Shown one piece after another: positions 2,088 through 46,162 of a stretch of 61,550 bases of DNA. Position 1 is the stretch's first letter. Every line of letters begins with the position of its first letter. The notes under the pieces are model-generated. The model saw nothing but the letters and a program-made list of their open reading frames with translations, was not told where the DNA came from and searched no databases. A program made the position numbers and the translations under genes. Source of the DNA: Deltaproteobacteria bacterium (GTDB lineage: Bacteria > UBA10199 > SPLOWO2-01-44-7); NCBI GenBank assembly GCA_023265595.1, contig JAHFSU010000008.1, forward strand, positions 1-61,550, read 5' to 3'.

Positions 2088-2114
2088 GCAACTTTTTTGG
2101 CAACCGACCGATAG
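2088..2114 (+). promoter_or_regulatory. Sigma28-like promoter motif GCAACTT-N14-CGATA
   Basis: GCAACTT 2088-2094, CCGATA 2108-2113, ATG at 2122. Confidence 0.55.
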
Positions 2115-2121
2115 TAACAAC

Positions 2122-3483
2122 ATGGGTTTTGTTTTAACATCTGTTATTGCTTTGGCACCCCAACTGGGTGCGCCGATCGGTGTTGAAGCCACCGAAGGAG
2201 CCCTTACTGCTTCGCCGACCCTTCGCGCTTATCTCGACGGCATGAATATCGACTATCACGATCTTTATGTAACAGGGCCGACCGTTGCAAGGGCCAGTCT
2301 TTTGTCCCTCGGCAATACCGGATTTTTGGGGGGCATCCCCATTCAAAAAATGCCCCGAAGAAAATCTCCCAAATATCTTCGGGAAGTGACCGATTTAGAC
2401 ACTCTTAGATCGATGTTCGAAAAATATGCATCGGCCGGCAAGGTGTTCGAAGTACTCGCCATTATCGATCAGATAGGCCGTGTTGGCGGTTTCAGGGGGG
2501 CGGCCTTCTTGAAGAACATTGCAGACCATTATTTGGAACGGTTCACACTGAGAAAAAGTCTTGCCGGATCGCATTTTGGGGCGGCTTATGCCATGTCACA
2601 AATCGGCTTGCACGCTTTGGAACATCTGACAAAAACAAAATCCCCTTTTGCTTTGGAAATGGCCCGCGAATTTTTAACCGGCAAAAAAGGGGTGGTTGCC
2701 TTCTCCTATCCCAATTTCAGAAATGAGGCAATTCTTCTGGAGCCGACGCATTCTGTTGTCGTTCGGGAAATTCTCAAGGTGTTGCAGAGGGGAGAGTTTG
2801 GGCTGAATGGGGCCATGCTCTTGAAGGACTTGTTGATCCGAATGGATTACGTATTAAAGACCGAAGTGATACAAGAAGGGTGTTTTAGAGAAGATGGGAC
2901 TTTGATGCTAGACCCATTTCAAATTGGTGTCGATGTGACGGTCGCTGTTTTTGAAACCGTTGTACAATACAAAGAAGGCGGACTTTTTTTGAGATTGTTG
3001 GAAAAAAATCCGACAAATGTGTCGATCGCTTTTTCCCGTCAAGGGGTCGAACTTTTAGAATTTGTTCCGGATGAAGAGGGGGATCCTCTCGATCTGGTTC
3101 GTGATGGGGTGAAGCGCGATCCAAAAACATTTGCCCACTATTTGAATTGCATAAAAAAATATAATCGGTCTCCCCTAAGAGGGGCAGTTTTAGAGGGGCT
3201 TAAAAAAGCCCTTGAAGGGCCCAATTATCTGGGGGCCGCTTCTGCCTTGGTGGAGATTAGCGGCGACGATGCGGCGCGCGTTTTGATTTATGGGTACCGA
3301 TTATTTGTGAGCATTGCGATCAAACAATTACAAATGGTGGAGGCGCTCAGTAGGATGAAAAACGATGTTGCCGCTCAATTTTTTGAGGAAGAAACGGAGA
3401 GAACCTCCCGTCTATTTTTCCGTCGCAGAAAAAGACTTAGAAATTTGGCAGAGGAGACGAGGACGAGGAGGAGAAACGGATAG
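2122..3483 (+). CDS. Hypothetical helical protein, HEAT-like C-terminus; candidate T3SS substrate
   Basis: Long ORF (track 2065-3483). ATG 2122 chosen because it follows the promoter motif. No family recognised. Confidence 0.6.
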   Translation: MGFVLTSVIALAPQLGAPIGVEATEGALTASPTLRAYLDGMNIDYHDLYVTGPTVARASLLSLGNTGFLGGIPIQKMPRRKSPKYLREVTDLDTLRSMFEKYASAGKVFEVLAIIDQIGRVGGFRGAAFLKNIADHYLERFTLRKSLAGSHFGAAYAMSQIGLHALEHLTKTKSPFALEMAREFLTGKKGVVAFSYPNFRNEAILLEPTHSVVVREILKVLQRGEFGLNGAMLLKDLLIRMDYVLKTEVIQEGCFREDGTLMLDPFQIGVDVTVAVFETVVQYKEGGLFLRLLEKNPTNVSIAFSRQGVELLEFVPDEEGDPLDLVRDGVKRDPKTFAHYLNCIKKYNRSPLRGAVLEGLKKALEGPNYLGAASALVEISGDDAARVLIYGYRLFVSIAIKQLQMVEALSRMKNDVAAQFFEEETERTSRLFFRRRKRLRNLAEETRTRRRNG

Positions 3484-3493
3484 CTTGCACAGC

Positions 3494-3526
3494 AAGAGCA
3501 TATGGTAGCAGCTACCATATGCTCTT
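3494..3526. terminator. Perfect 16-bp inverted repeat between convergent genes; probable bidirectional terminator
   Basis: aagagcatatggtagc-a-gctaccatatgctctt. Confidence 0.65.
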
Positions 3527-7574: not shown

Positions 7575-8945
7575 ATGACATTCTTTTCTCCACAATCGTT
7601 GGTCGGATTTGTAGTCCAGCCAGCTCTGTTCGAGGCCGAGGCCCCTTCTTTGCCTCCGACCACCGTTGTTGAAGAGGCTTTTTTGGCTGACACTCAGGAG
7701 AGGCTGGAAATCGAGTGGGCAGAAGCGGGACCTGTCCGATTATTGGCCGCTGTCACCAAAACCGGAATCCCCCGAGCAGAATTGTCATCCATTTTTAAAT
7801 ATCTTGCCGCTTCTCGATCCCGTGCCCCCAAAATTTATGATCGTATCGTTGGTCAGGCTGGAAGAAGAATTTTAGGGGGCGGCTTTTTGACTTTTCAGTC
7901 AAGGCTTCTCCCTCAAAATCATGACGATGCCGATTTGACTCCGCTGGAAGTGAAAGCATTGCAAGCCTTGGCAAGAATTGAAGAAGCCTCCATCGATTTG
8001 TGCCAAACACCGCGAATACCGTCTGAACATTTTTTTGGCGAAGGTTTAAGCGAGAGTGATATTGCTGATGCCCAACACCAAAGAGCAATAAAAGCATCTT
8101 ATTATCTGGCCTTTGCAGGTGTTAGGGCATCGGACCCAGATTCAAAAAAAACAAAATCCCCAGTAGAAATGAGCTGTGAAATCGCAAGAGGCCTTGTGCA
8201 AAAATACATAGAAGATTTGGGAATCCCCATTACTGTTTCTGCCTTCCTTATTCAGCGACTCAGTGCCGGCGAACTGGAAAGAGGAGGAGGGATCGGTGGA
8301 GTTTACGATGCTTTTACGCGCGTCGGTGCCATTCAGGAGACTCCTTCTGATGAAGAGAGACTTTTATATGCCGTGCATGAATTTATGCATGCCATAAAAC
8401 CGGCTATTCATCACGTAGAGCGTTGGGGATTTTCTTCAGATGAAGAATTCAACATTGCCCAATTGCGACACGGGCTAACTATTTTTGAAAGCGGATTTAG
8501 AGGTGCCAAGGGATTTGGAGAATGGCTGGATGAGGCCATGGCAGAGCTGGCCACCATCCGCGCCCTGCAACTTTCCGGCAAAATGCCAGATCCTCTTCAA
8601 TGGGATATGAACGATCAATACCATGTCGCTGTTTTTGTGATGCAAGAAATAATTAAAAAAGTTGCCGAACAGAGAGGCCAATCTTATCCGGAAATAGAGA
8701 AGGAATTGTTGAGGGCCTCTTTTAACGGTGATCCCGATTTTTATCAAATGTTGCTATCGGTCTTGGGAAAAAAACGATTCGCCCATCTTTTTACCAGAAC
8801 ACTAAAAGACGATGAAAGGCTGGTGGTCCATGTCGGGCGCCTTGTTAAAGATCCCCATTTGGTGGTTGCGAAAGATATTTTAGGGGAACCGGTTGCACCG
8901 GAACCGACTGGAACTCTACTTGCTTTCAAACTGAGAACTTCATGA
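7575..8945 (+). CDS. Putative zinc metallopeptidase (gluzincin-like); candidate T3SS effector
   Basis: HEFMH (8376-8390) plus downstream WLDEAMAE third-ligand motif. No Sec signal peptide. Confidence 0.65.
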   Translation: MTFFSPQSLVGFVVQPALFEAEAPSLPPTTVVEEAFLADTQERLEIEWAEAGPVRLLAAVTKTGIPRAELSSIFKYLAASRSRAPKIYDRIVGQAGRRILGGGFLTFQSRLLPQNHDDADLTPLEVKALQALARIEEASIDLCQTPRIPSEHFFGEGLSESDIADAQHQRAIKASYYLAFAGVRASDPDSKKTKSPVEMSCEIARGLVQKYIEDLGIPITVSAFLIQRLSAGELERGGGIGGVYDAFTRVGAIQETPSDEERLLYAVHEFMHAIKPAIHHVERWGFSSDEEFNIAQLRHGLTIFESGFRGAKGFGEWLDEAMAELATIRALQLSGKMPDPLQWDMNDQYHVAVFVMQEIIKKVAEQRGQSYPEIEKELLRASFNGDPDFYQMLLSVLGKKRFAHLFTRTLKDDERLVVHVGRLVKDPHLVVAKDILGEPVAPEPTGTLLAFKLRTS

Positions 8946-13618: not shown

Positions 13619-13646
13619 GCAACTTATTTTGAGGGGGAGACGATAA
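13619..13646 (+). promoter_or_regulatory. Sigma28-like promoter motif GCAACTT-N15-CGATAA
   Basis: GCAACTT 13619-13625, CGATAA 13641-13646; AAGGAG ribosome-binding site before ATG 13684. Confidence 0.55.
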
Positions 13647-13683: not shown

Positions 13684-14223
13684 ATGACACCAGCAGTGGC
13701 AAGTATTGCAGGCATCAACGAAGCCAACATCACTTTGGCGCAGGCCCTTTTCACGAATCAGGCGGCATTGAGTGCGGCCGCTCCGGGTGTGTTTGGTCCG
13801 GGTGTGTTTGGTCCGGCCGGCGCAACAGACAGTACTGTAGTCAAAGACGAAATAGCAAATTTAGCGATAGCGGCGTCCCATTTTGCCGTGTGCTATCCCG
13901 GACGCCGTGACTGGTACCATGCTGATGAAGCAGGTTCCCAAAGAATGGCTCTGAAAATTTTCGACTCCATTTCCAAGTTGAAAAAGTCTATTTTAAGAGA
14001 CACTCCGGAACAAGATGGAACTGGATTTTTTACTGCTCAAAACTTGATTGATATGCTCGTAAAAGAAGTACCTCAAGACAGATATGATGCAACAGTTCTA
14101 GTGGCCATTCGCTCTGCAGCGATTTTTGGCCAATTGGCCGCCGCTCGCCCTTCAAGTTCCGTTGCGGTTGCTGATAGTGGCCCTGTTTCTGGAGATGAAG
14201 ATGCCATTCTTAAGAGGGGTTAA
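13684..14223 (+). CDS. Hypothetical protein; candidate T3SS substrate
   Basis: Strong RBS, Ala-rich N-terminus, exact 15-bp tandem repeat (PGVFG twice, 13782-13811). Confidence 0.65.
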   Translation: MTPAVASIAGINEANITLAQALFTNQAALSAAAPGVFGPGVFGPAGATDSTVVKDEIANLAIAASHFAVCYPGRRDWYHADEAGSQRMALKIFDSISKLKKSILRDTPEQDGTGFFTAQNLIDMLVKEVPQDRYDATVLVAIRSAAIFGQLAAARPSSSVAVADSGPVSGDEDAILKRG

Positions 14224-14314: not shown

Positions 14315-14330
14315 TGGCATAAAAGTTGCA
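14315..14330 (+). promoter_or_regulatory. Sigma54 -24/-12 promoter of sctV
   Basis: TGGCATAAAAGTTGCA (GG-N10-GC). Confidence 0.75.
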
Positions 14331-14356: not shown

Positions 14357-16519
14357 ATGCCGCCACCGGGATCACAGGGCGGGGGAGAACCCCTGCCATT
14401 TTCAGGACTTAACACGATTATCGCCAAATATTCCGACCTGATGCTGGCGGGTTTAGTCATCACCGTCATGGGGATGATTGTCATCCCTCTCCCCAAACAG
14501 CTCCTCGACATTTTGCTCACGATCAACCTCACCATGGGGATCGTGATTTTGCTCGTTTCTCTCTACATTAGTGAGGCGCTTCGCATCGCCTCTTTCCCCA
14601 CTATTTTACTTATAGCAACACTTTACCGTTTGGCATTGAACATATCGACGACCCGTCTCATTTTGTCGCAAGCGGATGCGGGCAAGGTGATCGAAGCCTT
14701 CGGTCACTTTGTGGTGCGGGGCGATCCGATCGTCGGCGGCATTATTTTCATCATTTTGACATTGATCAATTTCATCGTGATCACCAAAGGTGCGGAGCGC
14801 GTTTCGGAAGTTGCCGCCCGTTTCACCTTGGATGCGATGCCCGGAAAACAGATGTCGATCGATGCCGATCTGCGCGCCGGCATCATCAATATCGAACAGG
14901 CTTTAGAACGCCGCTCGCAATTACAGCGCGAATCGCAACTTTATGGAGCGATGGACGGCGCCATGAAATTCGTGAAGGGAGATGCGATCGCCGGCATTAT
15001 CATTATCATCATCAATATTGTCGCCGGCCTCATCATCGGTGTCACACGCCGCGGGATGGATCTCCCCGATGCCGCCAATCTTTACACGTTGCTGACGATC
15101 GGCGACGGTTTGGTGCAGCAGATTCCGGCCCTCATTATCTCTGTTTCTGCCGGTGTGGTGGTTACCCGTGTGACTTCAGAAATTGAGGGTTCCAACCTCG
15201 GCCGTGAAATCATCACACAGATTACCGCCTATCCGAAGGCGATCATCATTGCCGCTTCTATTTTGCTTTCACTGGCGCTGGTTCCGGCCCTCCCCAAAAT
15301 TCCGTTTATTGTCGTGGCGGCTATTCTGGGTACGGTCGCCTTTTTTCTCGTTCGTTCCAAACAGAAAGTGGTGAAAGAGGTGATGGAGACGCCGAAGGAA
15401 GAGGTGGTCAAAAAGGCGGTCAAAAAACATGGCGATGTGTTGCCCTTTATCATGCCGTCACCGATTTCTCTCGAAGTCGGCTCCGGCATCATTCCGTTTG
15501 TCGATGACAAACAAGATGGAGGCCGCTTCATCAACGAATTGATTCCGCTCTTGCGCCATGGTCTCTACTACGAACTCGGTGTCAATTTTCCGGGAATTCA
15601 AGTTCGCGGGCAAACGGTCGACATGGAACCGGAAGGTTATGTGATCAACATTAATGAAGTTCCGGTGGCGCAGGGGAAAATCATGCAGGGGTGCATTTTG
15701 GTGGGAGAGCCGCTCGAACAACTTTCACTTTTTAATATTACGGGAACGGAGACGATTCATCCGATCGATGGCTCGGTCGTCACTTGGATTGCGCAACAGC
15801 ATAAAGATGTGGCGGTGCAGGCCGGTTTCAGAATGTGGGATATTGCGGAATATCTGATTTTGCATCTCTCCCATGCGCTGCGCAAACATGCCCATGAATT
15901 TTTGGGGGTGCAAGAGGTGCAGACGATGCTGACCGAATTGGAAAAAACACATCCGGCTTTGGTGAAAGAGCTGGTGCCGAAGGTGATTACCCTTTTGCAA
16001 CTGACCGAAATTTTTCAACGATTGGTGCAGGAAGATGTGGCGATCCGCGATCTCAAAACAATTTTTTCAACCTTGGCGCAATGGGGCGAAATTGAGCGCG
16101 ATCCGTTGATGCTGACTGAGCATGTGCGTGCGGGCTTGAAGCGCTATGTGACCCACAAATATGCCGGCCCTTCCAATACGCTGGCGGTCTATCTTTTGGA
16201 TCCGGAATTGGAAGATATGGTGAAAAATTCGATTCGTCGAACCGAAAAGGGAAATTATTTGGCGCTCGATCCCGAAATTACGCAGGAGCTGATTGAAGCG
16301 GTCGGAAAAGAAATCGCCTCGCATCCATTCCCTCCGGGGGCGAGACCACCGGTGATTTTGACTATCGCCGAAATCCGCCGTTATTTTCGCAAAATTATCG
16401 AACTCGAATTTCCCCAGCTCTCCGTCTTGTCCTACCAAGAGCTGGCCGAAAACCTCCGTATCCAGCCAATCGCCCGCGTCTCCCTCCCTCAAGAAATCCT
16501 CCAAAAAGCGGTTGCGTAA
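14357..16519 (+). CDS. sctV: T3SS export gate protein SctV (LcrD/FlhA family)
   Basis: RVSEVAARFTLDAMPGKQMSIDADL, GAMDGAMKFVKGDAIAG, LTIGDGLV, VLSYQEL. Confidence 0.93.
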   Translation: MPPPGSQGGGEPLPFSGLNTIIAKYSDLMLAGLVITVMGMIVIPLPKQLLDILLTINLTMGIVILLVSLYISEALRIASFPTILLIATLYRLALNISTTRLILSQADAGKVIEAFGHFVVRGDPIVGGIIFIILTLINFIVITKGAERVSEVAARFTLDAMPGKQMSIDADLRAGIINIEQALERRSQLQRESQLYGAMDGAMKFVKGDAIAGIIIIIINIVAGLIIGVTRRGMDLPDAANLYTLLTIGDGLVQQIPALIISVSAGVVVTRVTSEIEGSNLGREIITQITAYPKAIIIAASILLSLALVPALPKIPFIVVAAILGTVAFFLVRSKQKVVKEVMETPKEEVVKKAVKKHGDVLPFIMPSPISLEVGSGIIPFVDDKQDGGRFINELIPLLRHGLYYELGVNFPGIQVRGQTVDMEPEGYVININEVPVAQGKIMQGCILVGEPLEQLSLFNITGTETIHPIDGSVVTWIAQQHKDVAVQAGFRMWDIAEYLILHLSHALRKHAHEFLGVQEVQTMLTELEKTHPALVKELVPKVITLLQLTEIFQRLVQEDVAIRDLKTIFSTLAQWGEIERDPLMLTEHVRAGLKRYVTHKYAGPSNTLAVYLLDPELEDMVKNSIRRTEKGNYLALDPEITQELIEAVGKEIASHPFPPGARPPVILTIAEIRRYFRKIIELEFPQLSVLSYQELAENLRIQPIARVSLPQEILQKAVA

Positions 16520-23121: not shown

Positions 23122-23150
23122 GCAACTTTAGGTATCCACCCTGCCGATAA
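23122..23150 (+). promoter_or_regulatory. Sigma28-like promoter GCAACTT-N14-GCCGATAA
   Basis: GCAACTT 23122-23128, perfect GCCGATAA 23143-23150, GGAGG RBS, ATG 23173. Confidence 0.65.
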
Positions 23151-23721: not shown

Positions 23722-23743
23722 TAGGTAAAAAATGGAATGGAAT

Positions 23744-23797
23744 GCAGCCCGCGGATGTCTTAAAATAAAGAGGATATTCGCGGGCTGCTTATTTTTT
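23744..23797 (+). terminator. Stem-loop followed by a U-rich tract after the needle-like gene
   Basis: gcagcccgcggatgtc ... gatattcgcgggctgc ttattttt. Confidence 0.55.
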
Positions 23798-25257: not shown

Positions 25258-25286
25258 GCAACTTTGGCCCCCAAGGTCGACGATAA
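25258..25286 (+). promoter_or_regulatory. Sigma28-like promoter motif GCAACTT-N16-CGATAA
   Basis: GCAACTT 25258-25264, CGATAA 25281-25286, AGGAGG RBS, ATG 25308. Confidence 0.6.
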
Positions 25287-25736: not shown

Positions 25737-25739
25737 TTT

Positions 25740-27814: not shown

Positions 27815-27830
27815 TGGCATCAATCCTGCA
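27815..27830 (+). promoter_or_regulatory. Sigma54 promoter of the sigma factor/T3SS core operon
   Basis: TGGCATCAATCCTGCA (GG-N10-GC), downstream of an AT-rich intergenic region. Confidence 0.65.
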
Positions 27831-29241: not shown

Positions 29242-29255
29242 GATAGGTATGAAAG

Positions 29256-30248: not shown

Positions 30249-30914
30249 ATGCTCAGCGACAAAAAAATCATAAAGGGCGCCGATGTCGAAAAGAAAATGG
30301 CGCCGCGTCCCAGTTCGATTTCCATGAATACGACTGGGGGTGTGATCCATAAAGAAGAATTGAAGGCGAAAGACAAGGTAGAACGGATTTTGGACGAGGC
30401 ACAAAAAGAGGCCGATCGTATTCGCGTCGAAGCGGAATCCCTTCGCTCACAGGTTCAAGGCGAAATGGAAAAGGCAAAACAGAAAGGGTATTCCGAAGGA
30501 CGGGAACAAGGACTTTCCGAATTAACCGAAGAGATCGTCCGCATCCGGAAACTGAAAGAAGCATTTTTTGCAACGGCCGAACCGGATTTGATCAAGCTGG
30601 TGACCGATATCGCCGAAAAAGTGATCGGCAAACTGGTGGCCGATCATCCAGCGGCGCTCCATTCGATTGTGCATCAGGCGGTAGAACGCTCTCTGGGTGA
30701 TAGAATTACGGTTCGCCTGCACCCCTCTGATTTGAAGCGTTTGCAGACGATGGATATGACTTTCAAAAATATTCTCGACCGGACCAAACAGATTCATTTC
30801 AAAGAAGATGAAACCATACAACTTGGGGGGTGTGTCGTGGAGACTGAAGTGGGAACCATCGATGCCCAAATTGAGACACAACTCAAGGCGATCAAAAAAG
30901 CCCTCGGAGTGTAA
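30249..30914 (+). CDS. sctL: T3SS stator SctL (FliH family)
   Basis: AKQKGYSEGREQG, VRLHPSD, GGCVVETEVGTIDA. Confidence 0.85.
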   Translation: MLSDKKIIKGADVEKKMAPRPSSISMNTTGGVIHKEELKAKDKVERILDEAQKEADRIRVEAESLRSQVQGEMEKAKQKGYSEGREQGLSELTEEIVRIRKLKEAFFATAEPDLIKLVTDIAEKVIGKLVADHPAALHSIVHQAVERSLGDRITVRLHPSDLKRLQTMDMTFKNILDRTKQIHFKEDETIQLGGCVVETEVGTIDAQIETQLKAIKKALGV

Positions 30915-30916
30915 AC

Positions 30917-32242: not shown

Positions 32243-32751
32243 TGGCAAAATATCGTCTCGAAGCGTTGTTAAAAATGCGGACGCACGAAAAGAAGCGGGC
32301 TGAAATAGCTTTGGCAAAAGCGATTGCGGCCCTTCAGGAGGCAAAGAAGAAACTCGAAACCTTGAAAGAGGAAAAAAAAGAGATTGTGAAGGAGCAAAAA
32401 GAGGCCAAAAAGAAGATGGATCATAAAATGAGCGGCGGTGGATTAATCGGAGAAGGGTGTTTTCACGTCAATTTTTTACGCAAACTCAAAGAGGATGAGG
32501 TGCAGAAGGAAGAAAAGATTGAAGAACAAAAAGGGGTTGTCGAAGAGGCGACCGAAAAGGTGGCCAAATGCCGCAGAAATTATATCGATTCGGTCAAGCA
32601 GCTCCGGATCATGGAAAAACATAAGGAGCTTTGGGAGAAAAAGTTGCGTCAGGAATTGAACCGCCTTGAGGAAAAAGAGATGGATGAATTGGGTCAGACG
32701 ATCCATTCCTTAAAAAAATGGCGGGGGGAGAAATCGGTTTTTGAATTATGA
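32242..32751 (+). CDS. sctO: T3SS stalk SctO (FliJ-like coiled coil)
   Basis: KYRLEALLKMR start, coiled coil, EEKEMDE end; directly after the ATPase. Confidence 0.75.
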   Translation: MAKYRLEALLKMRTHEKKRAEIALAKAIAALQEAKKKLETLKEEKKEIVKEQKEAKKKMDHKMSGGGLIGEGCFHVNFLRKLKEDEVQKEEKIEEQKGVVEEATEKVAKCRRNYIDSVKQLRIMEKHKELWEKKLRQELNRLEEKEMDELGQTIHSLKKWRGEKSVFEL

Positions 32752-33530
32752 TCGAAGACGTTAAATATAACGATCGCAAATATATCGACCGGGCCGAACA
32801 GGCGAAAGAGGCCGACAAGCCGAAGCCTCCGAAAAAAGAGGGGAAGAGTCCGTTCGATGAATTGCTCGAGCAGAGCCAGCGCTTGCAACAGGGTTCTGTC
32901 GATACCAAATCGCAAGACAAACGTGTTTTGCAACAGGCGGCCAAAGAGGTCGAAAAGCGGCAGGAACGGCAGCGGGATCAGTCCAAAGATAGGGAAAGAG
33001 AAGACGAACATCGTCAGAATACAAGAGACGAACGGAGTCCGACACAAAGCGTGACCAAAAAAGTGGTCGGCAAGGCCGGTTTGAAAGAACAACAGGGGGG
33101 TGGCGGGGAGCATGCCTCGGAAGGGGGTGGCGGATTTTCACGCAAAAAAGAATCATCTTCCGCGGCGGCAAAAAAATCGGAAATGGCGCCGGCGCCGTTG
33201 CAAAAGGAGACAGGGGCCTTTGGCAAAGCGTTCAAAATAGCGATGTCGCAATATCTGCCCAAAACGCTTTCGCAGGAAATTTTGAACAAGGTCGTGCAAT
33301 ATGTCCGGATCGGTTTAAGCCGCAAAGGCAATAAAGAGATCGAACTGGAACTTCATGAAAAAATCTTTAAAGGGTTGCGTTTGCGCTTGGAGTCTAACCG
33401 TGGTAAAGTGACCCTGCATTTTTTGGCGGCCAATGCGCAGACACGGGCCCTTTTTGAAAGGGAGTCGTCAAAAATCCGGGCCCATCTTGAAAACAGGGGG
33501 ATCGACGTTGCAAAAGTGATGGTGACTTGA
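32748..33530 (+). CDS. Putative needle-length ruler SctP (FliK-like C-terminal domain)
   Basis: Disordered charged N-terminus, compact C-terminal domain (LRLRLESNRGKVTLHF..LENRGI), position after sctO. Confidence 0.6.
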   Translation: MIEDVKYNDRKYIDRAEQAKEADKPKPPKKEGKSPFDELLEQSQRLQQGSVDTKSQDKRVLQQAAKEVEKRQERQRDQSKDREREDEHRQNTRDERSPTQSVTKKVVGKAGLKEQQGGGGEHASEGGGGFSRKKESSSAAAKKSEMAPAPLQKETGAFGKAFKIAMSQYLPKTLSQEILNKVVQYVRIGLSRKGNKEIELELHEKIFKGLRLRLESNRGKVTLHFLAANAQTRALFERESSKIRAHLENRGIDVAKVMVT

Positions 33531-34444
33531 AACAATCTATGCCGCAAATCAAACCGTTCCAATTTCATTTGGCGAAAATTTCCGGAGCGGAGGTCCGTCT
33601 CGTGGAAGGACTTTTGGATTTTCTGCCGGCCACCGGTTTGAGAGAGACTCTCAACCTGGCCATCCGAAAAGCGCTCAACAAATATCTGCCGGATATTCGC
33701 TATTATGTGGAACGGGTTGAACCGCTTCACTTCCACGATTTTTTTGCATTGCTTCCCAACATTTGCACCGTCGGGGTTTTAGGGTTGAACCCATTTCAGG
33801 AAAAGGGTTTTGTCGAGATCGACCCTGTTTTAAACCAACGGGTCATTGCCAAATTGCTGGGCGGCAAATCGGAGGAGATGACGGAGCTCAAAATGTTGAC
33901 TGAAACCGAACAAGGCGTCGTCGAATTTTTAATTTTGAAGATATTGTCGCAAATTCATAAATTGAGCGGGGAAGAAGAGAGGCTCCATTTCCGGCTCGAG
34001 CAGATGATTTTGGAGCCGAATCATTTAAAACAATTCATTCGAAAAGATTATCCTCTGGTCTGCATCAAAATCCATGTTGCTTTTTTAAAGCAGTCGGGTT
34101 TTGTCAAAATTATCCTTCCTCATCCGTGGGTGGTTGAGGGCTTTTTGCAGGATCTGCCAAAAGAAAAATCGCATCTGTTGCAAGAACTCAAAAAAAATTT
34201 GAGCCATTTTGATTATATTCCGCTTGAGCTGTTCGGTTCGCTGGGAGATGTCCGAATCCATTTTGATGATTTGAAAAATCTTGAAGAAGGAGATGTTGTC
34301 TTGTTTGATGCGACGGAATTGGTTAGAAAGGATGCGGCATTTCGGGGTGAAGTCAAACTGGTGGCCGGTCAAGGTGAATCGGGCGCCTTGACGGCCCTTT
34401 GGGAAGGTTTTGCGGAGAAAGGTCGATGTCGTATAACGAAGTAG
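33527..34444 (+). CDS. SctQ/FliM-like C-ring protein
   Basis: LTETEQGVVE FliM-like segment and SpoA-like LKNLEEGDVVLF. Confidence 0.65.
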   Translation: MKQSMPQIKPFQFHLAKISGAEVRLVEGLLDFLPATGLRETLNLAIRKALNKYLPDIRYYVERVEPLHFHDFFALLPNICTVGVLGLNPFQEKGFVEIDPVLNQRVIAKLLGGKSEEMTELKMLTETEQGVVEFLILKILSQIHKLSGEEERLHFRLEQMILEPNHLKQFIRKDYPLVCIKIHVAFLKQSGFVKIILPHPWVVEGFLQDLPKEKSHLLQELKKNLSHFDYIPLELFGSLGDVRIHFDDLKNLEEGDVVLFDATELVRKDAAFRGEVKLVAGQGESGALTALWEGFAEKGRCRITK

Positions 34445-34483
34445 TGTATGGTACCTGTTAACATATGCTCGTCGGAGGCAAAA

Positions 34484-34834
34484 ATGGCTAAGAAAAAGGG
34501 TCAGGATGAAGATGTGACTGAGGTCGGCCTTGATTTGAGCGATCTTGAAGAAAAACAGGAACAAAAAGAGGAAAAGAGCGATTTTTCCGGTGATTTTTCC
34601 GATGAAGTGGTTTCCATGTCGGAAGATGTCCCCGTGCACCTTGTGGCTGTTTTGGGAAAAAAGAAGATATCGCTTAAAGATCTTTTGAAGCTGAAAGTGG
34701 GGCATACCCTCGATTTGGAAAGGGCCCCGAACGAATTTGTCGATCTCGTTGCAAACGGCAAGGTGATTGCCCGCGGGGAGCTCGTTGAAATCGACGGGAA
34801 ACTCGGCGTTCGGGTTATTAAGATGCTGAAATAG
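34484..34834 (+). CDS. FliN/SctQ-C SpoA-domain protein
   Basis: DVPVHLVAVLG..LLKLKVG..VDLVANGKVIARGELVEIDGKLGVRV; GGAGG RBS. Confidence 0.85.
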   Translation: MAKKKGQDEDVTEVGLDLSDLEEKQEQKEEKSDFSGDFSDEVVSMSEDVPVHLVAVLGKKKISLKDLLKLKVGHTLDLERAPNEFVDLVANGKVIARGELVEIDGKLGVRVIKMLK

Positions 34835-34836
34835 GC

Positions 34837-34916
34837 TGTCATTCCGGCCGCGTATCGTAGTACGGGGCAGGCTCCAGCCGAACCCAGACGGGACCCCGGC
34901 TTTCGTCGGGGTGATG
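34837..34916. repeat. Degenerate REP-like element (gtcattccggc... / ccccggc-tttc-gtcgggg)
   Basis: Related to 40129-40155. Confidence 0.5.
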
Positions 34917-34920
34917 AAAT

Positions 34921-35220
34921 ATGGATTTTACAATACTCTTTCTTCAGATGCTTTTTGCGTTGTTAGTCGTTTGCGCCGGGGCCGTCGTTGTTCTTAAATA
35001 TCTTTTGCCCCGGATGAGCGGGCTTAAAAAATGGCAAAAGGGGGACACTTTTGAATTGGTCAGTCGTTTCAATTTGGATTATAAAAGGACAATCTATTTA
35101 GTCAGGGTCGGAAAAAAGTATCTCGTCTTGGGGGGAGCCGAAGGGGGGCTCCAATTGTTGGCGGAATTGCCGGAGGGCGACGTCACAACAAGGGAGCATC
35201 ATGGATCGAAAATTGCGTAG
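34921..35220 (+). CDS. FliO-like membrane protein
   Basis: One TM segment, then LVSRFNLDYKRTIYLVRVGKKYLVLGGAEGGLQLL; lies between the FliN-like gene and sctR. Confidence 0.75.
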   Translation: MDFTILFLQMLFALLVVCAGAVVVLKYLLPRMSGLKKWQKGDTFELVSRFNLDYKRTIYLVRVGKKYLVLGGAEGGLQLLAELPEGDVTTREHHGSKIA

Positions 35221-35971
35221 CCGTTTTGTCTTTCTCTTTTCATTAATCGGTTCCATTTTATTTTCAGGTCCGCTGTTTGCGCAGGCGGCGAAGACCATCG
35301 GAGTCTCCCGCCCGCTCGTTTTGCTTTTGGCCTTGGCGGCCCTTTCTTTAGTCCCGTTTGTTTTAATGATGGCCACCTCTTTTGTGAAACTGGCCGTTGT
35401 TTTATCCCTAATTCGGAATGCGTTGGGAACCCAGCAGGTGCCGCCCAATATTGTGGTGACCGGATTGGCCCTCATTTTGACGGTCTACATTATGGCGCCG
35501 GTCGGGATTAAAGTTTATGATATTGCGAAAGAGACGATCAATCAGGGGACCAACCAGCCGTTGTTGTCTCAGGCTTCCGTCGAAATGTTGACGAAAGCGG
35601 TCAAAGAAGGAAAAGAACCGGTTCGCGATTTTTTGCTCCGACACGCCCATGAAAAGGAAAAAAAACTTTTTTATAATTTGGCCGTCGAGATGCGCAAAAA
35701 AGACAACGTAACCCAAGACATCAGCGAGAAAGATTTTTTGAACATCATCCCCGCGTTTGTGATCAGCGAATTGACGGAGGCCTTTCAAATCGGCTTCATC
35801 ATTTTTCTCCCCTTTCTGGTGATCGATATTGTCATTGCCAACATTTTGCTTTCCTTGGGTATGTTTCAAATTTCTCCCGTGACCTTGTCGCTGCCATTTA
35901 AACTTTTGCTTTTTGTGATGGTCGATGGCTGGCACCTGATTGTCAAAGGTCTGGTGCAGGGCTATTTATAA
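35201..35971 (+). CDS. sctR: T3SS export apparatus SctR (FliP family)
   Basis: TSFVKLAVVLSLIRNALGTQQVPPN, PAFVISELTEAFQIGF, SLPFKLLLFVMVDGW. Confidence 0.93.
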   Translation: MDRKLRSRFVFLFSLIGSILFSGPLFAQAAKTIGVSRPLVLLLALAALSLVPFVLMMATSFVKLAVVLSLIRNALGTQQVPPNIVVTGLALILTVYIMAPVGIKVYDIAKETINQGTNQPLLSQASVEMLTKAVKEGKEPVRDFLLRHAHEKEKKLFYNLAVEMRKKDNVTQDISEKDFLNIIPAFVISELTEAFQIGFIIFLPFLVIDIVIANILLSLGMFQISPVTLSLPFKLLLFVMVDGWHLIVKGLVQGYL

Positions 35972-35974
35972 CTT

Positions 35975-36238
35975 ATGGACTATTTTTTAGGCATCGCCAA
36001 ACAGGCCCTCTTTTTATCGCTGATCATTACCGCGCCGCCGGTTTTGGTCGCGATGATTGTGGGGCTCGTCATCAGCATCTTGCAGGCCACCACGCAGATT
36101 CAGGAGCAGACGCTCACGTTCGTTCCCAAACTGGTTGCCGTTGTGATAGCCATGGTCCTCACCGCCGAATTGCTCACAGGCCAGCTTCTCTCATATACGC
36201 ATTGGTTGTTTGATAATTTTGCGCAATACGTAAAATAA
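35975..36238 (+). CDS. sctS: T3SS export apparatus SctS (FliQ family)
   Basis: GLVISILQATTQIQEQTLTFVPKL. Confidence 0.93.
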   Translation: MDYFLGIAKQALFLSLIITAPPVLVAMIVGLVISILQATTQIQEQTLTFVPKLVAVVIAMVLTAELLTGQLLSYTHWLFDNFAQYVK

Positions 36239-37132
36239 ATGGAAACGGTTCTCCACGATTTAAATATCAACATCAATTTTCCTTTTGTGCTGACGATGGC
36301 GGCATTGATTTGGGCGCGCGTGTTGAGCGTGATTGTTGTGATTCCGTTTTTGTTCGGCAAACCGGTTCCGAGAACGGTGCGCGTCGGGGCCTCGGTCCTT
36401 TTGACGGTTTTTTTGTACCCGCTTTTGGTCGAAAAACAAATGGCGTCGCAGACAATCGATTTTCTGCGTCTCTTCGCCCTCTTTTTCAAAGAGATTTTGT
36501 TCGGCCTCTCCATCGGCTTTGCCGCCTCGATGCTCTTTTACGGCTTTGAAGCGGCCGGCCGGATGATCGATAACCAGCGCGGCGTCTCTCTCGCGAGGGT
36601 TTTGATTCCCGAATTGGGGGAGCAGTCTTCCATTTCGGGGCAGTTTCTTTTTCAATTTGCCGTCGTGATTTTTCTCGTTCTCGGCGGCCACCGGTTTTTT
36701 CTGAAGGCCTTGGCCGAAAGTTATCAGGCAGTGCCTCTTTTAAGTTTTCCGGAGAGTGTCTCCGGCCTCTTTCCGGTTGTCGACCTTTTTGGCGTTTTGA
36801 CCGGAAAGGTTTTATTTCTCTCGGTGCAGATTGCGGCGCCGGTCATTATCGCCGTGTTGATTGCCGATATTATTTTGGGAGTGACCAACCGTTTTGCGCC
36901 GCAGATTAATGTCTGGGAGTTGGGCTTTAACATCCGCGGCTATGTCGGCATTTTGCTTCTCTTTTTGTCGATGGGACTGATTGCCCGCCAGATTGAGTTT
37001 TACACCGAAAAATCAGGAAAAGAGGTTGTCCAAGTGATTGAGCGTTTCAAAGCCAAGCCGCCCCCCCTCCCAAAACCGTTGGAAGAGATCACCCCCGAAG
37101 AGCTCCAAAAACCGGCCCCGGTTGTCCCGTGA
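36239..37132 (+). CDS. sctT: T3SS export apparatus SctT (FliR family)
   Basis: AAGRMIDNQRG, GGHRFFL, NRFAPQINV; multiple TM segments. Confidence 0.9.
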   Translation: METVLHDLNININFPFVLTMAALIWARVLSVIVVIPFLFGKPVPRTVRVGASVLLTVFLYPLLVEKQMASQTIDFLRLFALFFKEILFGLSIGFAASMLFYGFEAAGRMIDNQRGVSLARVLIPELGEQSSISGQFLFQFAVVIFLVLGGHRFFLKALAESYQAVPLLSFPESVSGLFPVVDLFGVLTGKVLFLSVQIAAPVIIAVLIADIILGVTNRFAPQINVWELGFNIRGYVGILLLFLSMGLIARQIEFYTEKSGKEVVQVIERFKAKPPPLPKPLEEITPEELQKPAPVVP

Positions 37133-37251: not shown

Positions 37252-37267
37252 TGGCATCACGGTTGCA
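37252..37267 (+). promoter_or_regulatory. Sigma54 promoter of the translocator/chaperone operon
   Basis: TGGCATCACGGTTGCA (GG-N10-GC); AGGAGG RBS before 37317. Confidence 0.75.
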
Positions 37268-42329: not shown

Positions 42330-45300
42330 TCAATGGCCCTTTATGATCGAAAATTGCGATTTGGCATCCCGTTCGTTAAAATGAAGCTCAAAACATTTGG
42401 CCCCCTCAAAATCCTTTTCATCCCCTTGCGGATTACAGAGCCATCCGTTGAGGGCGATGAAAATGGTGACATTCTTAAAGGTCAGCGGGTCTTCGCGGGG
42501 GCTGAACTTCCCGACACTCACCACTGAGAAAATGCCGGTTTGCGGATCAATCCGGCGGCCGTGCAAGAACGCCGTGGCATCTTTAACGTCGTTTTTCCCT
42601 GGGTCCGGACACTCCGCCGGAATCTCACCCGATTCATCTTTGGATAAAAGGGGCCCGATATAATGCCAACTGCTATACTTTTTTCCGCCGTATGTCCGAT
42701 TATTGGTGTTTTTGAAACAGATCGGCGGATTGGGGAGATCTTCCTGAGTCAGGTTGATTTTGTGTTCCAAGCGGGCTGTGTTGATCCTCTCTTCCGGCAG
42801 GACATTGTATGCCGAAGAAGCGTCTTTCGGTTTGAGCGTTTCCGTAGTGAAGGCGATGTGAAAGACCTCATCCAACGGCGCTTTGAAGCCGAGCGGTCCG
42901 GAAGGATTGTCGATAAAAGTAGGACCCCAAAAACGGAGTCCGCTATTTTCGGCTGTAAAAGAACCGTCCACGGAATAATGGACCTCTGACATGGCTTCCA
43001 AATCCTGTGGACGATCTTTGACGGCGCAGAGGTCACCGATCTGCCCATTGATAATCGGTTCAAAGGTGGGGCTCGAAAATTTACCGCCGGAAGTATAGAA
43101 AAAGGCGCACGCCCCTTTGTCATCGGCGCCGACGCCGCTTTTACTAAATTTAGCAAGCCCCTCTGCAGAACAGGGATCGATAATTTCACAGGCGCCGCGA
43201 TCAATGGGGGAGCGGGACGACAACGGCCCCGGATAAGAGAGGGAACCGGTAAAAATTCGCCAACCGTTGATTTTCAAGGGGGTCGGTAACGGATGATCCG
43301 GGAAATCGTAATCGTAAAAAATGCCTGTTTTGCCTCCGGTGATATCGGAATCATAAAGCAAGGTTGCAAAATCAAAAAGGTTGGAATCCTCATAATTTTT
43401 GGAGGTTGGTCTTGTATCGAGCTCCCGGAAAATGCCCGTCCATCCATCGCCGGGAATACCCACCACTCTCCCTTTCGAGTCGGTCAGCTCCATTTCATCA
43501 AATGGATCGAGAATAATGGCTCCCAGCATCACGATTCTTTCCTCCTCACCGCTTCGTCCCTCACGGATCATCAAATCGACTTCATCGCTCGAGGCCATGG
43601 CCGCAAGACTCGGTGATGTCGCATTCAAAATAGCGGCGATCGTTTGCGTAATGCGCAAAACCATTTTTCCTTTGAGGGGATCGATGACCGCCACAATAGG
43701 AATGGTTAATGTTGTTGTCTTCAGTGACTGGTCCGGATTGTGATCCGGTTTGCCCGTCGCATCCAGTTTAATGGCATTGACAGTCAGATCAGTTTTGAAA
43801 AGACGCTGACGAACCGGTTGTGCGGGATCTTTATGAAAATTGAGACAACCGAAAAGGGGCATCGTTTCTCGGGTGTATTCCCCCGGTTTCAGATCAAAGC
43901 CCTGTCCCATGAGGGAGACAAAATTGAGATCGAACTTTTCATCCACTTGTCTGCCGCTTGTCGGGTTGATGATCGGAATTGAACAGCGCTTGCCGCTCCC
44001 TGACGGCGGTTGTCGGCCGGCCACTTTTTCCGGCGTGTCGAGCCATTCAAAGAAGGCGGACTCTTTTCCGGAAAGGGCGATCGAGGTAATGCGCAGACCA
44101 CTGTTTGCCGTATCGGCCAATTTTAAAAATACCGGCACGGCCAAGTCGGTTGTCGTTGCGGTCACCTCTTCCATGGCAAAAGTCTCATTGCCAGCTTTGG
44201 CCTTCAGACCCGTTGCCGTTCCAAAATAGGTCTGCAAATCCGGGATATCCTGAATACGGGTTCTCCCTAGTAACTGAATTTTTTTGACAGGGCCACCCGT
44301 TTCGATTTTCAAAACGGCCTTGTCGATCACGTCTTGTCCTGTCACGGCCTGTTTTCCATCCCAGCCCAAAAGATCGGTCGGCAAATAAGCAATGCTGATG
44401 AAAAGCCTCTCTTCCTGAAAATCTTTTTGATAGGGTTTGAGTGCTGTGGGGAGTGTTTCGGGTCTGGCGTTTTCAATGGAGGTTCCTTTCATGATCGAAT
44501 CCTTAAATAATTGGAACTGTCCGGTCGATTTGGAACCGACGAGATCGTCAATATGAATGTCTTTGATGACCATCTTGGCGATGCCGTTATTTTGTATGAT
44601 GACGGTCTGTTTGGACGGGGTGAGGGTTGTTGGGCTGCCTGATAATTCCAGCGAAACAGCCGGAATATTTTTCGTTTCGTTCGGTTTGCAGTCCGCATGG
44701 ACCTCTTCCAACGGCGTCCCCAACGTGTTGATTGGAAGCAATTTGCAGCCGCTGACATCGGGCATTTCGCATCGTTTGCACTGTGTGACCTTCTCTCCGG
44801 CATCGCACCGGATTTTTTGGCATCGAAAATAATCTTTCATTTGTGCCGCCGGCGCCGAAACAGCAGAGAGAAGAACGGCGTCAACATTGGAGGCGGTGGT
44901 TTGCCCCGCATCATCAATCTGATTTACGGCCGTTCTTCCGCCGGCCTTGAGGGCCATGCCGCTCAAAAAGAAACGATCGGCCCCGAAATAAATTTTTTCC
45001 TTAATCATTTTAGGTTGTGGGGTGTCGTTTTGAGTCGGTCTGAAAGTGATGACAAAACGGATGCTTTGGTTTGGTGCGAGAGAGCGTTTTGATTTTCCCT
45101 CCACATCAAAATAAAACGGCCCGATGTGGCTAGGTAATTCCACTTTGACCGGTTTTTTGGAAAGATTGGTTGCCTTGAAATGGGCTGTTTCTTCAAAGGA
45201 GGGGCCGACATCCTGCGGTCCCTGTGCAATGTAGGTCCCCTTGGAAATTTCCAGAATATTTCCATCCGGCAGAGGTTCTTCGGTCATCATCCCCGTTGCA

Positions 45301-46049
45301 TCAAGATGGGTTTTGACAATACGAATGTTTTTGACGCCGCTTTCCGTCTGCGCACAATCGCTTAACGGCGGAGAGATTTTTCCTTCAAAACTGGCCTGAA
45401 GCGAGGCCTTCAACAGATATTCATCCGCTTTGGGAAAAAGATGGCCAACCGTGGTTGCGGCAACCAGCAAAATGGATCCATCCGGCGCGGCGGGCGAGCC
45501 CTTCTGTGGCGGGAGATACTCGAGTGTTTTGGTTTCTCCTGTTGTGAGATCGATTCCCGATATTTCACCGCTGACGCCGAGCACATTAATAAAGAAGGAA
45601 AAATTTTTGATTTCGATATCTCCCTCCGGGGTCCATGTCCCCTCTCCGGTATTTTGCGAACCGTCTCCGGTCCCTTTGCCATTAATGGTCAGCGGGGTTT
45701 TGACCCCTTTGAGATCGATGTCGACATGGATGTCCGGAAAATCGCTTCCTTTGAGAAGAATTTTTTCTCCTTCGATTTCGAAAGGGATCTCCGGCGTATC
45801 GGCACAGAGCAGTTTGGCCGGATCCAATCCCGTTTCAAACTTTTCCCCTTTGATTTTGACACAGAGCTTTGCCGTCAGTTTCAAGGCACAACGGGCGGAA
45901 GAAGAGATATTGGGCTGTTTGTTGTTGGTGGATGGGGGTGTGGCTGAAGACGACTGGGTCGGAAAATAGACCGGATGATAGTCCTCTCCGGCACAGCCTA
46001 TAAAGATGGTCAGGGGGAGTAAAAAAATGAATTTGGAAGCGTTCTTCAT
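42330..46049 (-). CDS. Large Cys-rich surface lipoprotein (1239 aa) with Ig-like segments
   Basis: Signal MKNASKFIFLLPLTIFIG|C; beta-rich segments such as LAPNQSIRFVITFRP. Confidence 0.7.
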   Translation of the reverse strand: MKNASKFIFLLPLTIFIGCAGEDYHPVYFPTQSSSATPPSTNNKQPNISSSARCALKLTAKLCVKIKGEKFETGLDPAKLLCADTPEIPFEIEGEKILLKGSDFPDIHVDIDLKGVKTPLTINGKGTGDGSQNTGEGTWTPEGDIEIKNFSFFINVLGVSGEISGIDLTTGETKTLEYLPPQKGSPAAPDGSILLVAATTVGHLFPKADEYLLKASLQASFEGKISPPLSDCAQTESGVKNIRIVKTHLDATGMMTEEPLPDGNILEISKGTYIAQGPQDVGPSFEETAHFKATNLSKKPVKVELPSHIGPFYFDVEGKSKRSLAPNQSIRFVITFRPTQNDTPQPKMIKEKIYFGADRFFLSGMALKAGGRTAVNQIDDAGQTTASNVDAVLLSAVSAPAAQMKDYFRCQKIRCDAGEKVTQCKRCEMPDVSGCKLLPINTLGTPLEEVHADCKPNETKNIPAVSLELSGSPTTLTPSKQTVIIQNNGIAKMVIKDIHIDDLVGSKSTGQFQLFKDSIMKGTSIENARPETLPTALKPYQKDFQEERLFISIAYLPTDLLGWDGKQAVTGQDVIDKAVLKIETGGPVKKIQLLGRTRIQDIPDLQTYFGTATGLKAKAGNETFAMEEVTATTTDLAVPVFLKLADTANSGLRITSIALSGKESAFFEWLDTPEKVAGRQPPSGSGKRCSIPIINPTSGRQVDEKFDLNFVSLMGQGFDLKPGEYTRETMPLFGCLNFHKDPAQPVRQRLFKTDLTVNAIKLDATGKPDHNPDQSLKTTTLTIPIVAVIDPLKGKMVLRITQTIAAILNATSPSLAAMASSDEVDLMIREGRSGEEERIVMLGAIILDPFDEMELTDSKGRVVGIPGDGWTGIFRELDTRPTSKNYEDSNLFDFATLLYDSDITGGKTGIFYDYDFPDHPLPTPLKINGWRIFTGSLSYPGPLSSRSPIDRGACEIIDPCSAEGLAKFSKSGVGADDKGACAFFYTSGGKFSSPTFEPIINGQIGDLCAVKDRPQDLEAMSEVHYSVDGSFTAENSGLRFWGPTFIDNPSGPLGFKAPLDEVFHIAFTTETLKPKDASSAYNVLPEERINTARLEHKINLTQEDLPNPPICFKNTNNRTYGGKKYSSWHYIGPLLSKDESGEIPAECPDPGKNDVKDATAFLHGRRIDPQTGIFSVVSVGKFSPREDPLTFKNVTIFIALNGWLCNPQGDEKDFEGAKCFELHFNERDAKSQFSIIKGH

Positions 46050-46058
46050 ACGTGGTTC

Positions 46059-46085
46059 TTATCGGCAATAGACGGAAAAGGTTGC
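46059..46085 (-). promoter_or_regulatory. Sigma28-like promoter GCAACCT-N12-GCCGATAA
   Basis: On the minus strand; perfect GCCGATAA ends 9 nt before ATG 46049. Confidence 0.6.
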
Positions 46086-46162
46086 GTGGGCAAGACGCAG
46101 GAGGATGACATGTCGCGTTAACATTCAGGCAACTTTTTGAGTTAGAAGACGAAGACGATATC

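Follow-up and report, generated by a model that had tools for sequence, protein, structure and literature searches.

The motif GCAACYT-N14-16-CGATA recurs in front of genes in the window, that is, the whole 61,550-nt contig JAHFSU010000008.1 analysed here, which belongs to assembly GCA_023265595.1 of a deltaproteobacterium from the phylum UBA10199. The same contig carries a T3SS (type III secretion system) locus and the gene of a FliA/WhiG-like sigma factor. The motif is best explained as the promoter class of the organism's single alternative sigma70-family factor, namely this divergent FliA/WhiG (sigma28-type) protein, and it is probable that the class is read by this sigma and makes up a large regulon across the phylum. 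The signal is much larger and older than first proposed: the original prediction described a T3SS regulon that reaches some orphan genes outside the locus, whereas the analysis points to a phylum-wide promoter class with ~150 members per genome.

Within the window, the pattern has six matches, compared with a mean of 0.03 in 100 dinucleotide-preserving shuffles, none of which reached six. All six lie where the original prediction had placed them (Table 1), and its three perfect copies of the -10 octamer, GCCGATAA, were recovered at 7541, 23122 and 46085. The octamer reads ACCGATAG at 2088 and GACGATAA at 13619 and 25258. The weaker CGAAG variant claimed at 46129 is present as well, with a score (23.1) in a range where the shuffled genome has zero sites. 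Each window site is oriented towards an open reading frame (ORF) with a start codon 7-37 nt past the -10 octamer, in line with the predicted placement directly upstream of genes.

Distribution and placement of the motif

The genome is a 1.87 Mb assembly of 70 contigs (rated 97% complete and 0.4% contaminated), of which the window is one entire contig. The exact pattern occurs 94 times genome-wide, compared with two occurrences of the reversed pattern. A two-block weight matrix with a variable spacer was built by a single re-estimation from the exact matches, and double counts were removed. At a score of ≥ 18 it finds 153 sites, compared with none in a first-order Markov copy of the genome; the counts are 163 versus 5 at score 17 and 225 versus 34 at score 15. 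The consensus is A(A/C)GCAACTTTTTT-N-TGCCGATAA, i.e. GCAACTTT-N11-GCCGATAA. GCAACTT and CGATA are separated by 14 nt in 116 of the 153 sites; a further 14 sites have a gap of 15 nt and 18 have one of 16 nt. Of 95 exact genome matches, 87 have G at position -15 of the -10 element, 72 have C at -14 and 82 have A at -8. A sub-class with a 16-nt gap and a G+C-rich spacer (e.g. TTTGGCCCCC) precedes T3SS-linked genes, namely at 23122 and 25258 in the window, near 42741 on contig C35 and in loci L004-L035.

The 153 sites mark ~8% of the 1824 called ORFs and are spread over 53 of the 70 contigs, which bears out the predicted reach to orphan genes outside the locus. The T3SS locus itself is not a hot spot, as 8 sites lie in the window and 5.0 would be expected there from an even spread. 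As a local feature, the proposed T3SS regulon could not be upheld: the motif is neither local nor centred on the T3SS.

Positions relative to genes were judged by site classes and distance windows against random positions, using a crude ORF caller of our own that favours the longest ORF. Intergenic placement was found for 96 of the 153 sites, compared with 7% of random positions. Another 24 lie within the first 150 nt of the longest same-strand ORF and are mostly start-codon miscalls, and 23 lie deep inside called ORFs, compared with 72% of random positions. Equal frequency inside genes, which the original prediction had named as speaking against it, is hence not what was found. The motif-preceded genes have atypical codon scores, and gene-context tests with the crude ORF caller discriminated poorly.

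The distance to the start codon (of an ORF of ≥ 60 residues) is constrained. A start codon follows 5-11 nt past the octamer in 51 of the 153 sites (7.9% at random) and exactly 7 nt past it, the most frequent distance, in 17 (1.1% at random). Among the 121 best sites a second peak stands at 21-22 nt. In 48 of these 121, the gap is 11 nt or shorter, and the start codon is ATG in 39 of the 48. The other 73 have longer leaders, and a Shine-Dalgarno-like word was detected in 49 of them, compared with 12% at random. When the octamer is placed at -15 to -8, following the numbering of Pseudomonas aeruginosa fliC in an excerpt of PMC12784957, a 7-nt gap puts the A of the ATG at +1. By this analysis, about one third of the targets should be leaderless mRNAs.

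These regularities bear on whether the motif is a promoter at all. It could instead be a regulator binding site or a dispersed repeat near gene starts; a few high-scoring sites lack a close ORF (27800 and 28710 on contig C16, 12091 on contig C39). Such a reading would have to accommodate two blocks at a fixed gap of 14 nt around a variable spacer sequence, flanks that vary between sites, a strict orientation towards the gene and two preferred start-codon distances. The downstream block is moreover identical to the sigma28 -10 as given in the excerpt of PMC12784957, and the downstream genes have few paralogues. We regard this alternative as very improbable. The ORF-less sites (C16 27800-27826 and 28710-28736, C39 12091-12116) are near-perfect promoters by score (37.6-39.6) and may drive small RNAs. 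One of them has a 187-nt leader that contains a sigma54-like word, and a search of Rfam at the strong ORF-less sites returned no known RNA family besides one tRNA.

Conservation was studied in 93 genomes of the phylum (24 families, 73 genera, one class), of which 63 are of high quality. The motif is present in all 93, with 11-120 copies each compared with 0-5 for the reversed pattern, and also in all 31 nearest genomes. The sigma factor was found in 91 of the 93 genomes and in all 63 high-quality ones, as a single match each, except in two where its gene is split over two contigs; complete matches show 54-80% identity. The T3SS export gate (FHIPEP) has a match in 91 of the 93 genomes as well. 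Families further away often have GAAACTT as their -35 element. A long-spacer site precedes homologues of the 142-aa gene at 25308, upstream of sigma, in many relatives' loci. A single orphan (2122-3483) was traced through the phylum and occurs in 2 of the 93 genomes; its same-genus orthologue is preceded by GCAACAT-N15-CGATG, with the ATG again 7 nt past the octamer, and the protein is 29% identical. Among the titles listed by a literature search on UBA10199 none concerns transcription, and the matches listed for GCAACTT together with CCGATAA are unrelated.

The sigma factor and the altered -35 element

Only two genes in the genome encode sigma70 region 2, namely an RpoD-like gene (~646 residues, contig C65) and the 291-residue gene in the window; rpoN lies on contig C32. 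The best model for the window sigma is FliA_WhiG (TIGR02479), ahead of SigB/F/G and the extracytoplasmic function (ECF) models. Its closest solved relatives are WhiG (6pfv, 6pfj) and FliA (9wsm, 6pmi), and its relatives are named 'sigma-70 family' or 'FliA' in public sources. The DW(I/x)PR stretch of region 3 reads the extended -10. In the window sigma this stretch is GWIPR, which aligns with DWIPR of WhiG and DWAPR of FliA, and GW(I/L/V/M)PR is found across the clade. The GCCGATAA-type -10 of the motif includes the extended -10 GC, a sigma28 feature. A passage on R101 in the excerpt of PMC12784957 bears on the role of the region-3 stretch. The same source, as far as it was available, gives GCCGATAA as the sigma28 -10 consensus, which agrees with the original assignment of the motif to a sigma28-type promoter class.

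Upstream of the tRNA genes, TTGACN-N16-18-TWNNNH occurs in 7 of 42 sequences, compared with 2.4% of random 120-mers, and the motif in none of the 42. With this ordinary promoter type present at tRNA genes, TTGACA-type promoters would fall to RpoD and the GCCGATAA-type to the FliA-like sigma. Because there are only two sigma70-family factors, the motif was assigned to the window sigma; by this exclusion and by likeness, it is probably the reader. The local FliA-like sigma put forward originally thus stands as the sole sigma70-family factor besides the RpoD-like one, and its role as reader as a predicted one. The alternative that the motif is the phylum's housekeeping promoter, read by the RpoD-like sigma, would account for its phylum-wide presence and its high frequency (~150 sites per ~1800 ORFs). 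It agrees poorly with the TTGACA-type tRNA upstreams and with a -10 that matches sigma28 and not TATAAT, and motif-preceded genes are depleted in housekeeping families, unlike the control genes described below. We give it very little credence.

The -35 word of Escherichia coli FliA is TAAAGTTT, placed N11 before GCCGATAA. The consensus GCAACTTT-N11-GCCGATAA has the same spacing and shares five of the eight -35 letters with this E. coli word. In P. aeruginosa fliC, according to the excerpt of PMC12784957, GCCGATAA lies at -15 to -8 and the -35 element TCTAAAG at -36 to -30. On this numbering, the motif has A(A/C)GCAAC at -36 to -30, with GCAAC at -34 to -30, in the same place as TAAAG. The sigma28 -35 TAAA(G), as far as that source describes it, is not matched: A-32, A-31 and the T run agree, and G-34, C-33 and C-30 differ. 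Judged from the sequence, the -35 element is a variant of the sigma28 -35 and not a new element. The original claim of a new -35 thus holds in that the element departs from TAAA, and does not hold in that spacing and five of eight positions of TAAAGTTT are kept.

The part of the sigma factor that would contact this element is changed as well. S224 and Q228 of region 4.2 make base-specific contacts with -36 to -34, and Q228 with -36/-35, in the excerpt of PMC12784957. We equated these residues with S229 and Q233 of 9wsm_F, the only Ser/Gln pair four apart in the helix, which assumes an offset of five. With this inferred offset, the Q228 column has Arg in the window sigma, the S224 column keeps Ser, and the Arg of FliA neighbouring the Q228 column is replaced by Trp. 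The helix reads LSKSWTSRLH in the window sigma and VSESRVSQLH in FliA (4 of 10 positions differ by our count), and LSKSW(T/V)SRLH is found in all 42 aligned clade orthologues, with one T/V change. The assignment predicts that a kept -10 goes with a kept reader of the -10 and that an altered -35 goes with an altered reader of the -35; the sequences agree with this, without being proof of it.

A motif variant of score 28.2, GCAACTT-N14-CGAAG, was observed near 35306 on contig C65 (minus strand; locus L113 2300-2335). It falls within the final 300 nt of the gene that precedes the RpoD-like one, ~270 nt before the ATG of the latter, and may be an internal promoter for rpoD.

Regulon content and proposed control of the secretion locus

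Few of the proteins encoded behind the motif belong to known families. A Pfam scan of 115 motif-preceded proteins (site score ≥ 22, ≥ 90 residues, first 900 residues, E 1e-5 or better) yielded 37 families, none of them in more than one protein. The same number of random neighbouring genes without the motif yielded 189, and these controls include tRNA synthetases, enolase, RNase E and ATP synthase. In the window, none of the seven genes directly behind a site has a Pfam hit. The predicted position before orphans is well borne out by this comparison, and the genes behind the motif are depleted in housekeeping families, the reverse of the second outcome that the original prediction had named as unfavourable. 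The families that do occur comprise a structural maintenance of chromosomes (SMC) protein with an intein, a MiaB/RimO-like enzyme, GGDEF/GAF/HAMP, PilZ, an SLT transglycosylase, CAP and a Met-zincin, and furthermore collagen and thrombospondin repeats, HEAT repeats, an EamA transporter, FGE-sulfatase and NAGPA. Of the T3SS genes, sctU (contig C35, 88 nt behind a long-spacer site) and the operon closed by sctJ follow the motif. Among 121 motif-preceded proteins, BLAST detected only six small clusters of paralogues, the largest with four members; this ruled out that the motif is carried by one expanded gene family.

A Sec, lipoprotein or other hydrophobic N-terminus was detected in 14 of the 121 proteins by a rough heuristic and in at least four more by eye; 107 are without one by the heuristic. 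In the remaining proteins, residues 2-30 contain more T, P, A and S and less R and H than the sequence that follows them. The original designation as 'effectors and surface proteins' is supported for its surface part by the Sec- or lipoprotein-like N-termini, and its effector part stays a reading of the other proteins as T3SS substrates. The orphan sequences fit fast-evolving secreted or surface proteins, which does not by itself demonstrate secretion. That many of them are T3SS substrates is a tentative proposal that we consider less likely than not.

Some further features of the targets were observed. HExxH occurs in 9 of the 121 motif-preceded proteins, compared with 45 of the 1824 called ORFs, several times in a zincin-like context. 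The SMC gene (C57 73638-78788) lies behind a motif of score 31.9, and its intein, with a LAGLIDADG domain, is in the P-loop region. On contig C62 a weaker site (21.6) lies near 3066, 164 nt before a gene with an N-terminus that we take to look like ScpA.

The sigma gene and the export gate gene are themselves preceded by another promoter type. The sigma54-type pattern TGGCA[CT]-N5-[TC]TGC has 64 sites genome-wide, compared with 3 for the reversed pattern, and three of them are in the window (before sctV, the sigma gene and the gene at 37317). Of 42 loci from relatives, 16 have a comparable site upstream of their sigma match (strict pattern), at 40-160 nt in 15 and at 280 nt in one. An NtrC-type sigma54 activator is encoded divergently from the sigma gene (Table 1). 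We lean towards a cascade in the order sigma54, sigma28-type sigma, motif regulon. In such a cascade the NtrC-type activator and sigma54 would fire the conserved TGGCAT-N5-CTGC promoter, which would drive the sigma gene plus the T3SS export-apparatus genes behind it, and the sigma would then fire ~150 dispersed promoters. The regulon would comprise T3SS parts (sctU, the sctJ-ending operon and small T3SS-linked genes), a few cell-cycle and signalling genes (SMC, GGDEF, PilZ), some lipoproteins and, as its majority, fast-evolving proteins without a family. The sigma54-type sites appear as a second large regulon, and many of them precede lipoprotein-like and pilin-like genes.

The genes after sigma encode, in order, a 162-aa protein, FliG-like, SctL/FliH, SctN ATPase, SctO, SctP/FliK-like, FliM-like, FliN, FliO, FliP, FliQ and FliR. 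The core Sct set V, J, L, N, O, Q, R, S, T and U is present, with SctU on contig C35, and of the three secretin genes in the genome none is in the window. Across the T3SS core (27868-37132, 14357-16519 and 24121-25173) the gene order is flagellum-like and FliG-, FliM- and FliO-like genes are kept. In the genome, no match was found to Flagellin_N, Flg_bb_rod, Flg_bbr_C or FliE, nor to a hook gene, at a rated completeness of 97%. The system thus resembles a secretion apparatus of flagellar descent more than it does a classical injectisome.

Two small proteins of the locus were considered in this context. No match to the needle family (SctF) was found. The 182-aa protein (23173) has no Pfam hit, its best sequence match to a solved chain has E 1.3, and its single-sequence model (mean pLDDT 58.9) contains one confident long helix at residues 129-180; its C-terminus may resemble those of needle proteins, and the needle-like gene of the original prediction stays a candidate. 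The 162-aa protein (28753-29241) has no family match, very conserved C-terminal 75 residues and a position kept in 21 of 42 relatives' loci. Its C-terminus may be more like that of an inner-rod or FliE-type protein than that of an anti-sigma factor, and the FliE family searched against the genome including this protein gave no match.

Several results weigh against the reading of the motif as the promoter class of this sigma. The window sigma scores 122.1 bits against FliA_WhiG (TIGR02479), below the curated cut-off of 189.6. Derived from stringent matches, the matrix under-counts weak sites and leans towards its seed. The sites deep inside ORFs may be due in part to miscalling by the crude gene caller and in part to chance or internal promoters. 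The sole sequencing run listed as containing the full stretch is a DNA run, possibly the source of the window, and no RNA run is among those listed. In an RNA run of the same sample, a single contig of 190 nt matches sctV, and the spots 10847-10877 and 26946-26978 are also matched by unrelated contigs; neither a start nor a level is readable from it. The sctV gene and the sigma operon are behind sigma54-type sites and not behind the motif, contrary to the predicted T3SS regulon under this motif. The N-terminal bias is modest (T 1.42x, P 1.31x, R 0.5x). No FlgM was found, the best genome match to PF04316 having E 0.09, below the cut-off, in an anti-sigma search limited to FlgM; a checkpoint tying the regulon to secretion is therefore missing, and a divergent FlgM analogue may exist. 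Finally, one genome of the phylum (G043, 96% complete) has 47 motif copies and the sigma and no FHIPEP match, which fits badly with a strictly T3SS-bound regulon, unless it reflects an assembly gap.

With the same promoter and the same sigma, the regulon could also be a general life-stage programme (dispersal, attack or infective phase), in which most orphans would be something other than T3SS cargo and the T3SS would be just one co-regulated module of many. We consider this a serious possibility that falls somewhat short of even chances. The even spread of the sites and the presence of motif and sigma in G043 are in its favour, and so are targets such as the intein-bearing SMC protein, the MiaB/RimO-like enzyme, GGDEF/GAF/HAMP, PilZ, EamA, the SLT transglycosylase and the lipoproteins. 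A parallel is provided by Bdellovibrio bacteriovorus, where TTAAG-N16-CCGATA marks 92 of 140 mapped attack-phase promoters, including those of surface proteins, proteases and many uncharacterised genes (excerpt of PMC3627812). A closer tie to secretion is indicated by the sigma gene, which heads a tight run of T3SS export-apparatus genes, by several relatives in which a single contig carries the sigma gene and the FHIPEP gene 10-18 kb apart, and by the 107 targets without a Sec signal together with their very fast evolution, as is often seen in injected or secreted proteins. The life-stage and T3SS-cargo readings are not mutually exclusive.

Returning to the promoter class of the window sigma, the motif regulon and the universal T3SS suggest that the phylum has a life style of two phases, in association with a host or prey. 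A more speculative extension, which we think rather unlikely as a whole, is that a small-genome phylum kept the flagellar logic (sigma54, then a FliA-type sigma, then late substrates) after loss of the flagellum and retuned its -35 reading, and that the sigma now expresses a large, fast-turnover and often leaderless set that serves a secretion machine of flagellar origin as cargo and surface coat. If this were true, the secretome of each member of the phylum could be read from its sequence by means of the promoter alone. From DNA alone, the motif allows the listing of proteins that are co-regulated, probably stage-specific and in part secreted, in organisms that have not been grown. It also provides a natural pair of an altered sigma helix and an altered -35 for the study of sigma28 -35 reading, and a large class of predicted leaderless mRNAs tied to one sigma factor.

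The coordinates of the window features are collected in Table 1. The two promoters at 46060-46155 stand head to head with 43 nt between them and would drive the 1239-aa and 970-aa orphans in opposite directions. The site at 48318-48345 is either an internal promoter or a chance match. Two observations outside these features were made. Many unrelated DNA and RNA contigs, most of which lack base 10863, match at high depth the 31-nt stretch 10847-10877 that separates an M23 peptidase gene from secA; the stretch is probably a widespread short repeat or hairpin. For the 417-aa ORF 344-1597, the sole family match is a weak one to Intein_splicing, which stays below the cut-off (E 2.6e-4).

Table 1. 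Promoter-like elements and genes of the motif regulon and the T3SS locus in the window
Position	Strand	Feature	Details
2088..2113	+	Sigma28-type promoter, GCAACTT-N14-CGATA, -10 ACCGATAG	Matrix score 28.2; ATG 2122, gap 7 nt
2122..3483	+	Orphan, 453 aa, predicted leaderless	Found only in same-genus genome, 29% identity
7541..7566	+	Sigma28-type promoter, perfect GCCGATAA	Score 36.6; ATG 7575, gap 7 nt
7575..8945	+	Orphan, 456 aa, HEFMH motif at residue 268	Metalloprotease-like leads, under the bar for family naming
13619..13645	+	Sigma28-type promoter, N15, GACGATAA	Score 30.5; start 13684, gap 37 nt; 179-aa orphan
13684..14223	+	Orphan, 179 aa, upstream of sctV	Paralogue on contig C25 also behind the motif
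14315..14329	+	Sigma54-type promoter, TGGCAT-N5-TTGC	27 nt before sctV/flhA start
14357..16519	+	T3SS export gate SctV/FlhA	FHIPEP, E 2.3e-235
23122..23149	+	Sigma28-type promoter, long-spacer class (N16), perfect GCCGATAA	Score 27.9; start 23173, gap 22 nt
23173..25173	+	Putative operon: 182-aa orphan (23173-23721), TPR chaperone-like (23811-24263), SctJ/FliF-family lipoprotein (24121-25173)	
25258..25285	+	Sigma28-type promoter, long-spacer class (N16), GACGATAA	Start 25308, gap 21 nt
25308..26117	+	Pair of small orphans (142 aa; 125 aa)	
26126..27496	-	NtrC-type sigma54 activator (receiver, Sigma54_activat, HTH_8)	Divergent from sigma gene
27815..27829	+	Sigma54-type promoter, TGGCAT-N5-CTGC	38 nt before sigma gene
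27868..28743	+	FliA/WhiG-like sigma factor, 291 aa, proposed motif reader	Sigma70_r2 and r4 matches
28753..37132	+	T3SS core genes, tightly packed after sigma	Gaps 0-87 nt
37252..37266	+	Sigma54-type promoter before 37317-38510 orphan	
42330..46049	-	Orphan, 1239 aa, lipoprotein-type signal	
46060..46085	-	Sigma28-type promoter, GCAACCT-N14-CGATA, perfect GCCGATAA	Score 33.5; ATG 46049, gap 9 nt
46129..46155	+	Weaker variant, GCAACTT-N14-CGAAG	Score 23.1; GTG 46163, gap 7 nt
46163..49075	+	Orphan, 970 aa, signal-peptide-like N-terminus, GTG start	
48318..48345	+	Motif-like site CCAGCTT-N14-CGATA within the 46163-49075 ORF	Score 24.9 (weight matrix)

Comparison with known systems

Flagellar sigma28 regulons usually comprise a dozen or two promoters, compared with ~150 here. 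Like the class-3 flagellar sigma28 of E. coli, Salmonella and P. aeruginosa, the window sigma has regions 2, 3 and 4, and FliA is, with WhiG, its best solved relative. Unlike in the class-3 system, no flagellin, rod or hook gene and no FlgM were found in this genome. The promoters share with class-3 flagellar promoters the GCCGATAA -10, the distance between the blocks, A-32/A-31 and the T run after the -35, and differ in the -35 itself, which is GCAAC instead of TAAAG, with changes at -34, -33 and -30 (class-3 data from the excerpt of PMC12784957). Among the papers listed by a literature search on type III secretion and FliA, none concerns a non-flagellar T3SS governed by FliA.

Bdellovibrio is not known to have a T3SS injectisome-type locus. 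FliA as the global attack-phase regulator of this organism is, as far as the excerpt of PMC3627812 goes, the closest precedent, with a sigma28-type motif and a large, mostly non-flagellar regulon of surface and uncharacterised proteins. Its -35 is TTAAG, the organism is flagellated and it has further sigma factors, with RpoE-like ones named in the same excerpt. Transcription starts were mapped there, whereas the promoters described here are known from their sequence.

In repertoire, the closest sigma set is that of Chlamydia trachomatis, which has three sigma factors (sigma66, sigma54 and sigma28), a small genome and a non-flagellar T3SS, and in which sigma54 is epistatic to sigma28 (from the part of bioRxiv 10.1101/2023.04.27.538638 that was available). 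Its sigma28 regulon, in that same part, comprises two genes, compared with ~150 promoters here. It also differs in the -35 element, and the T3SS described here keeps FliG-, FliM- and FliO-like genes. Streptomyces WhiG, the chains of which (6pfv and 6pfj) are the best solved relatives of the window sigma, is a further sigma28-family factor that controls development and not flagella; according to an excerpt of PMC12871210 it is held by RsiG with c-di-GMP, and organism and regulon differ. Large non-flagellar sigma28 regulons, as in Bdellovibrio, and small ones, as in Chlamydia, were thus already known. The novelty is a sigma28-type promoter whose -35 has changed, with matching changes in the recognition helix of its probable reader, and which is fixed across a whole uncultured phylum.

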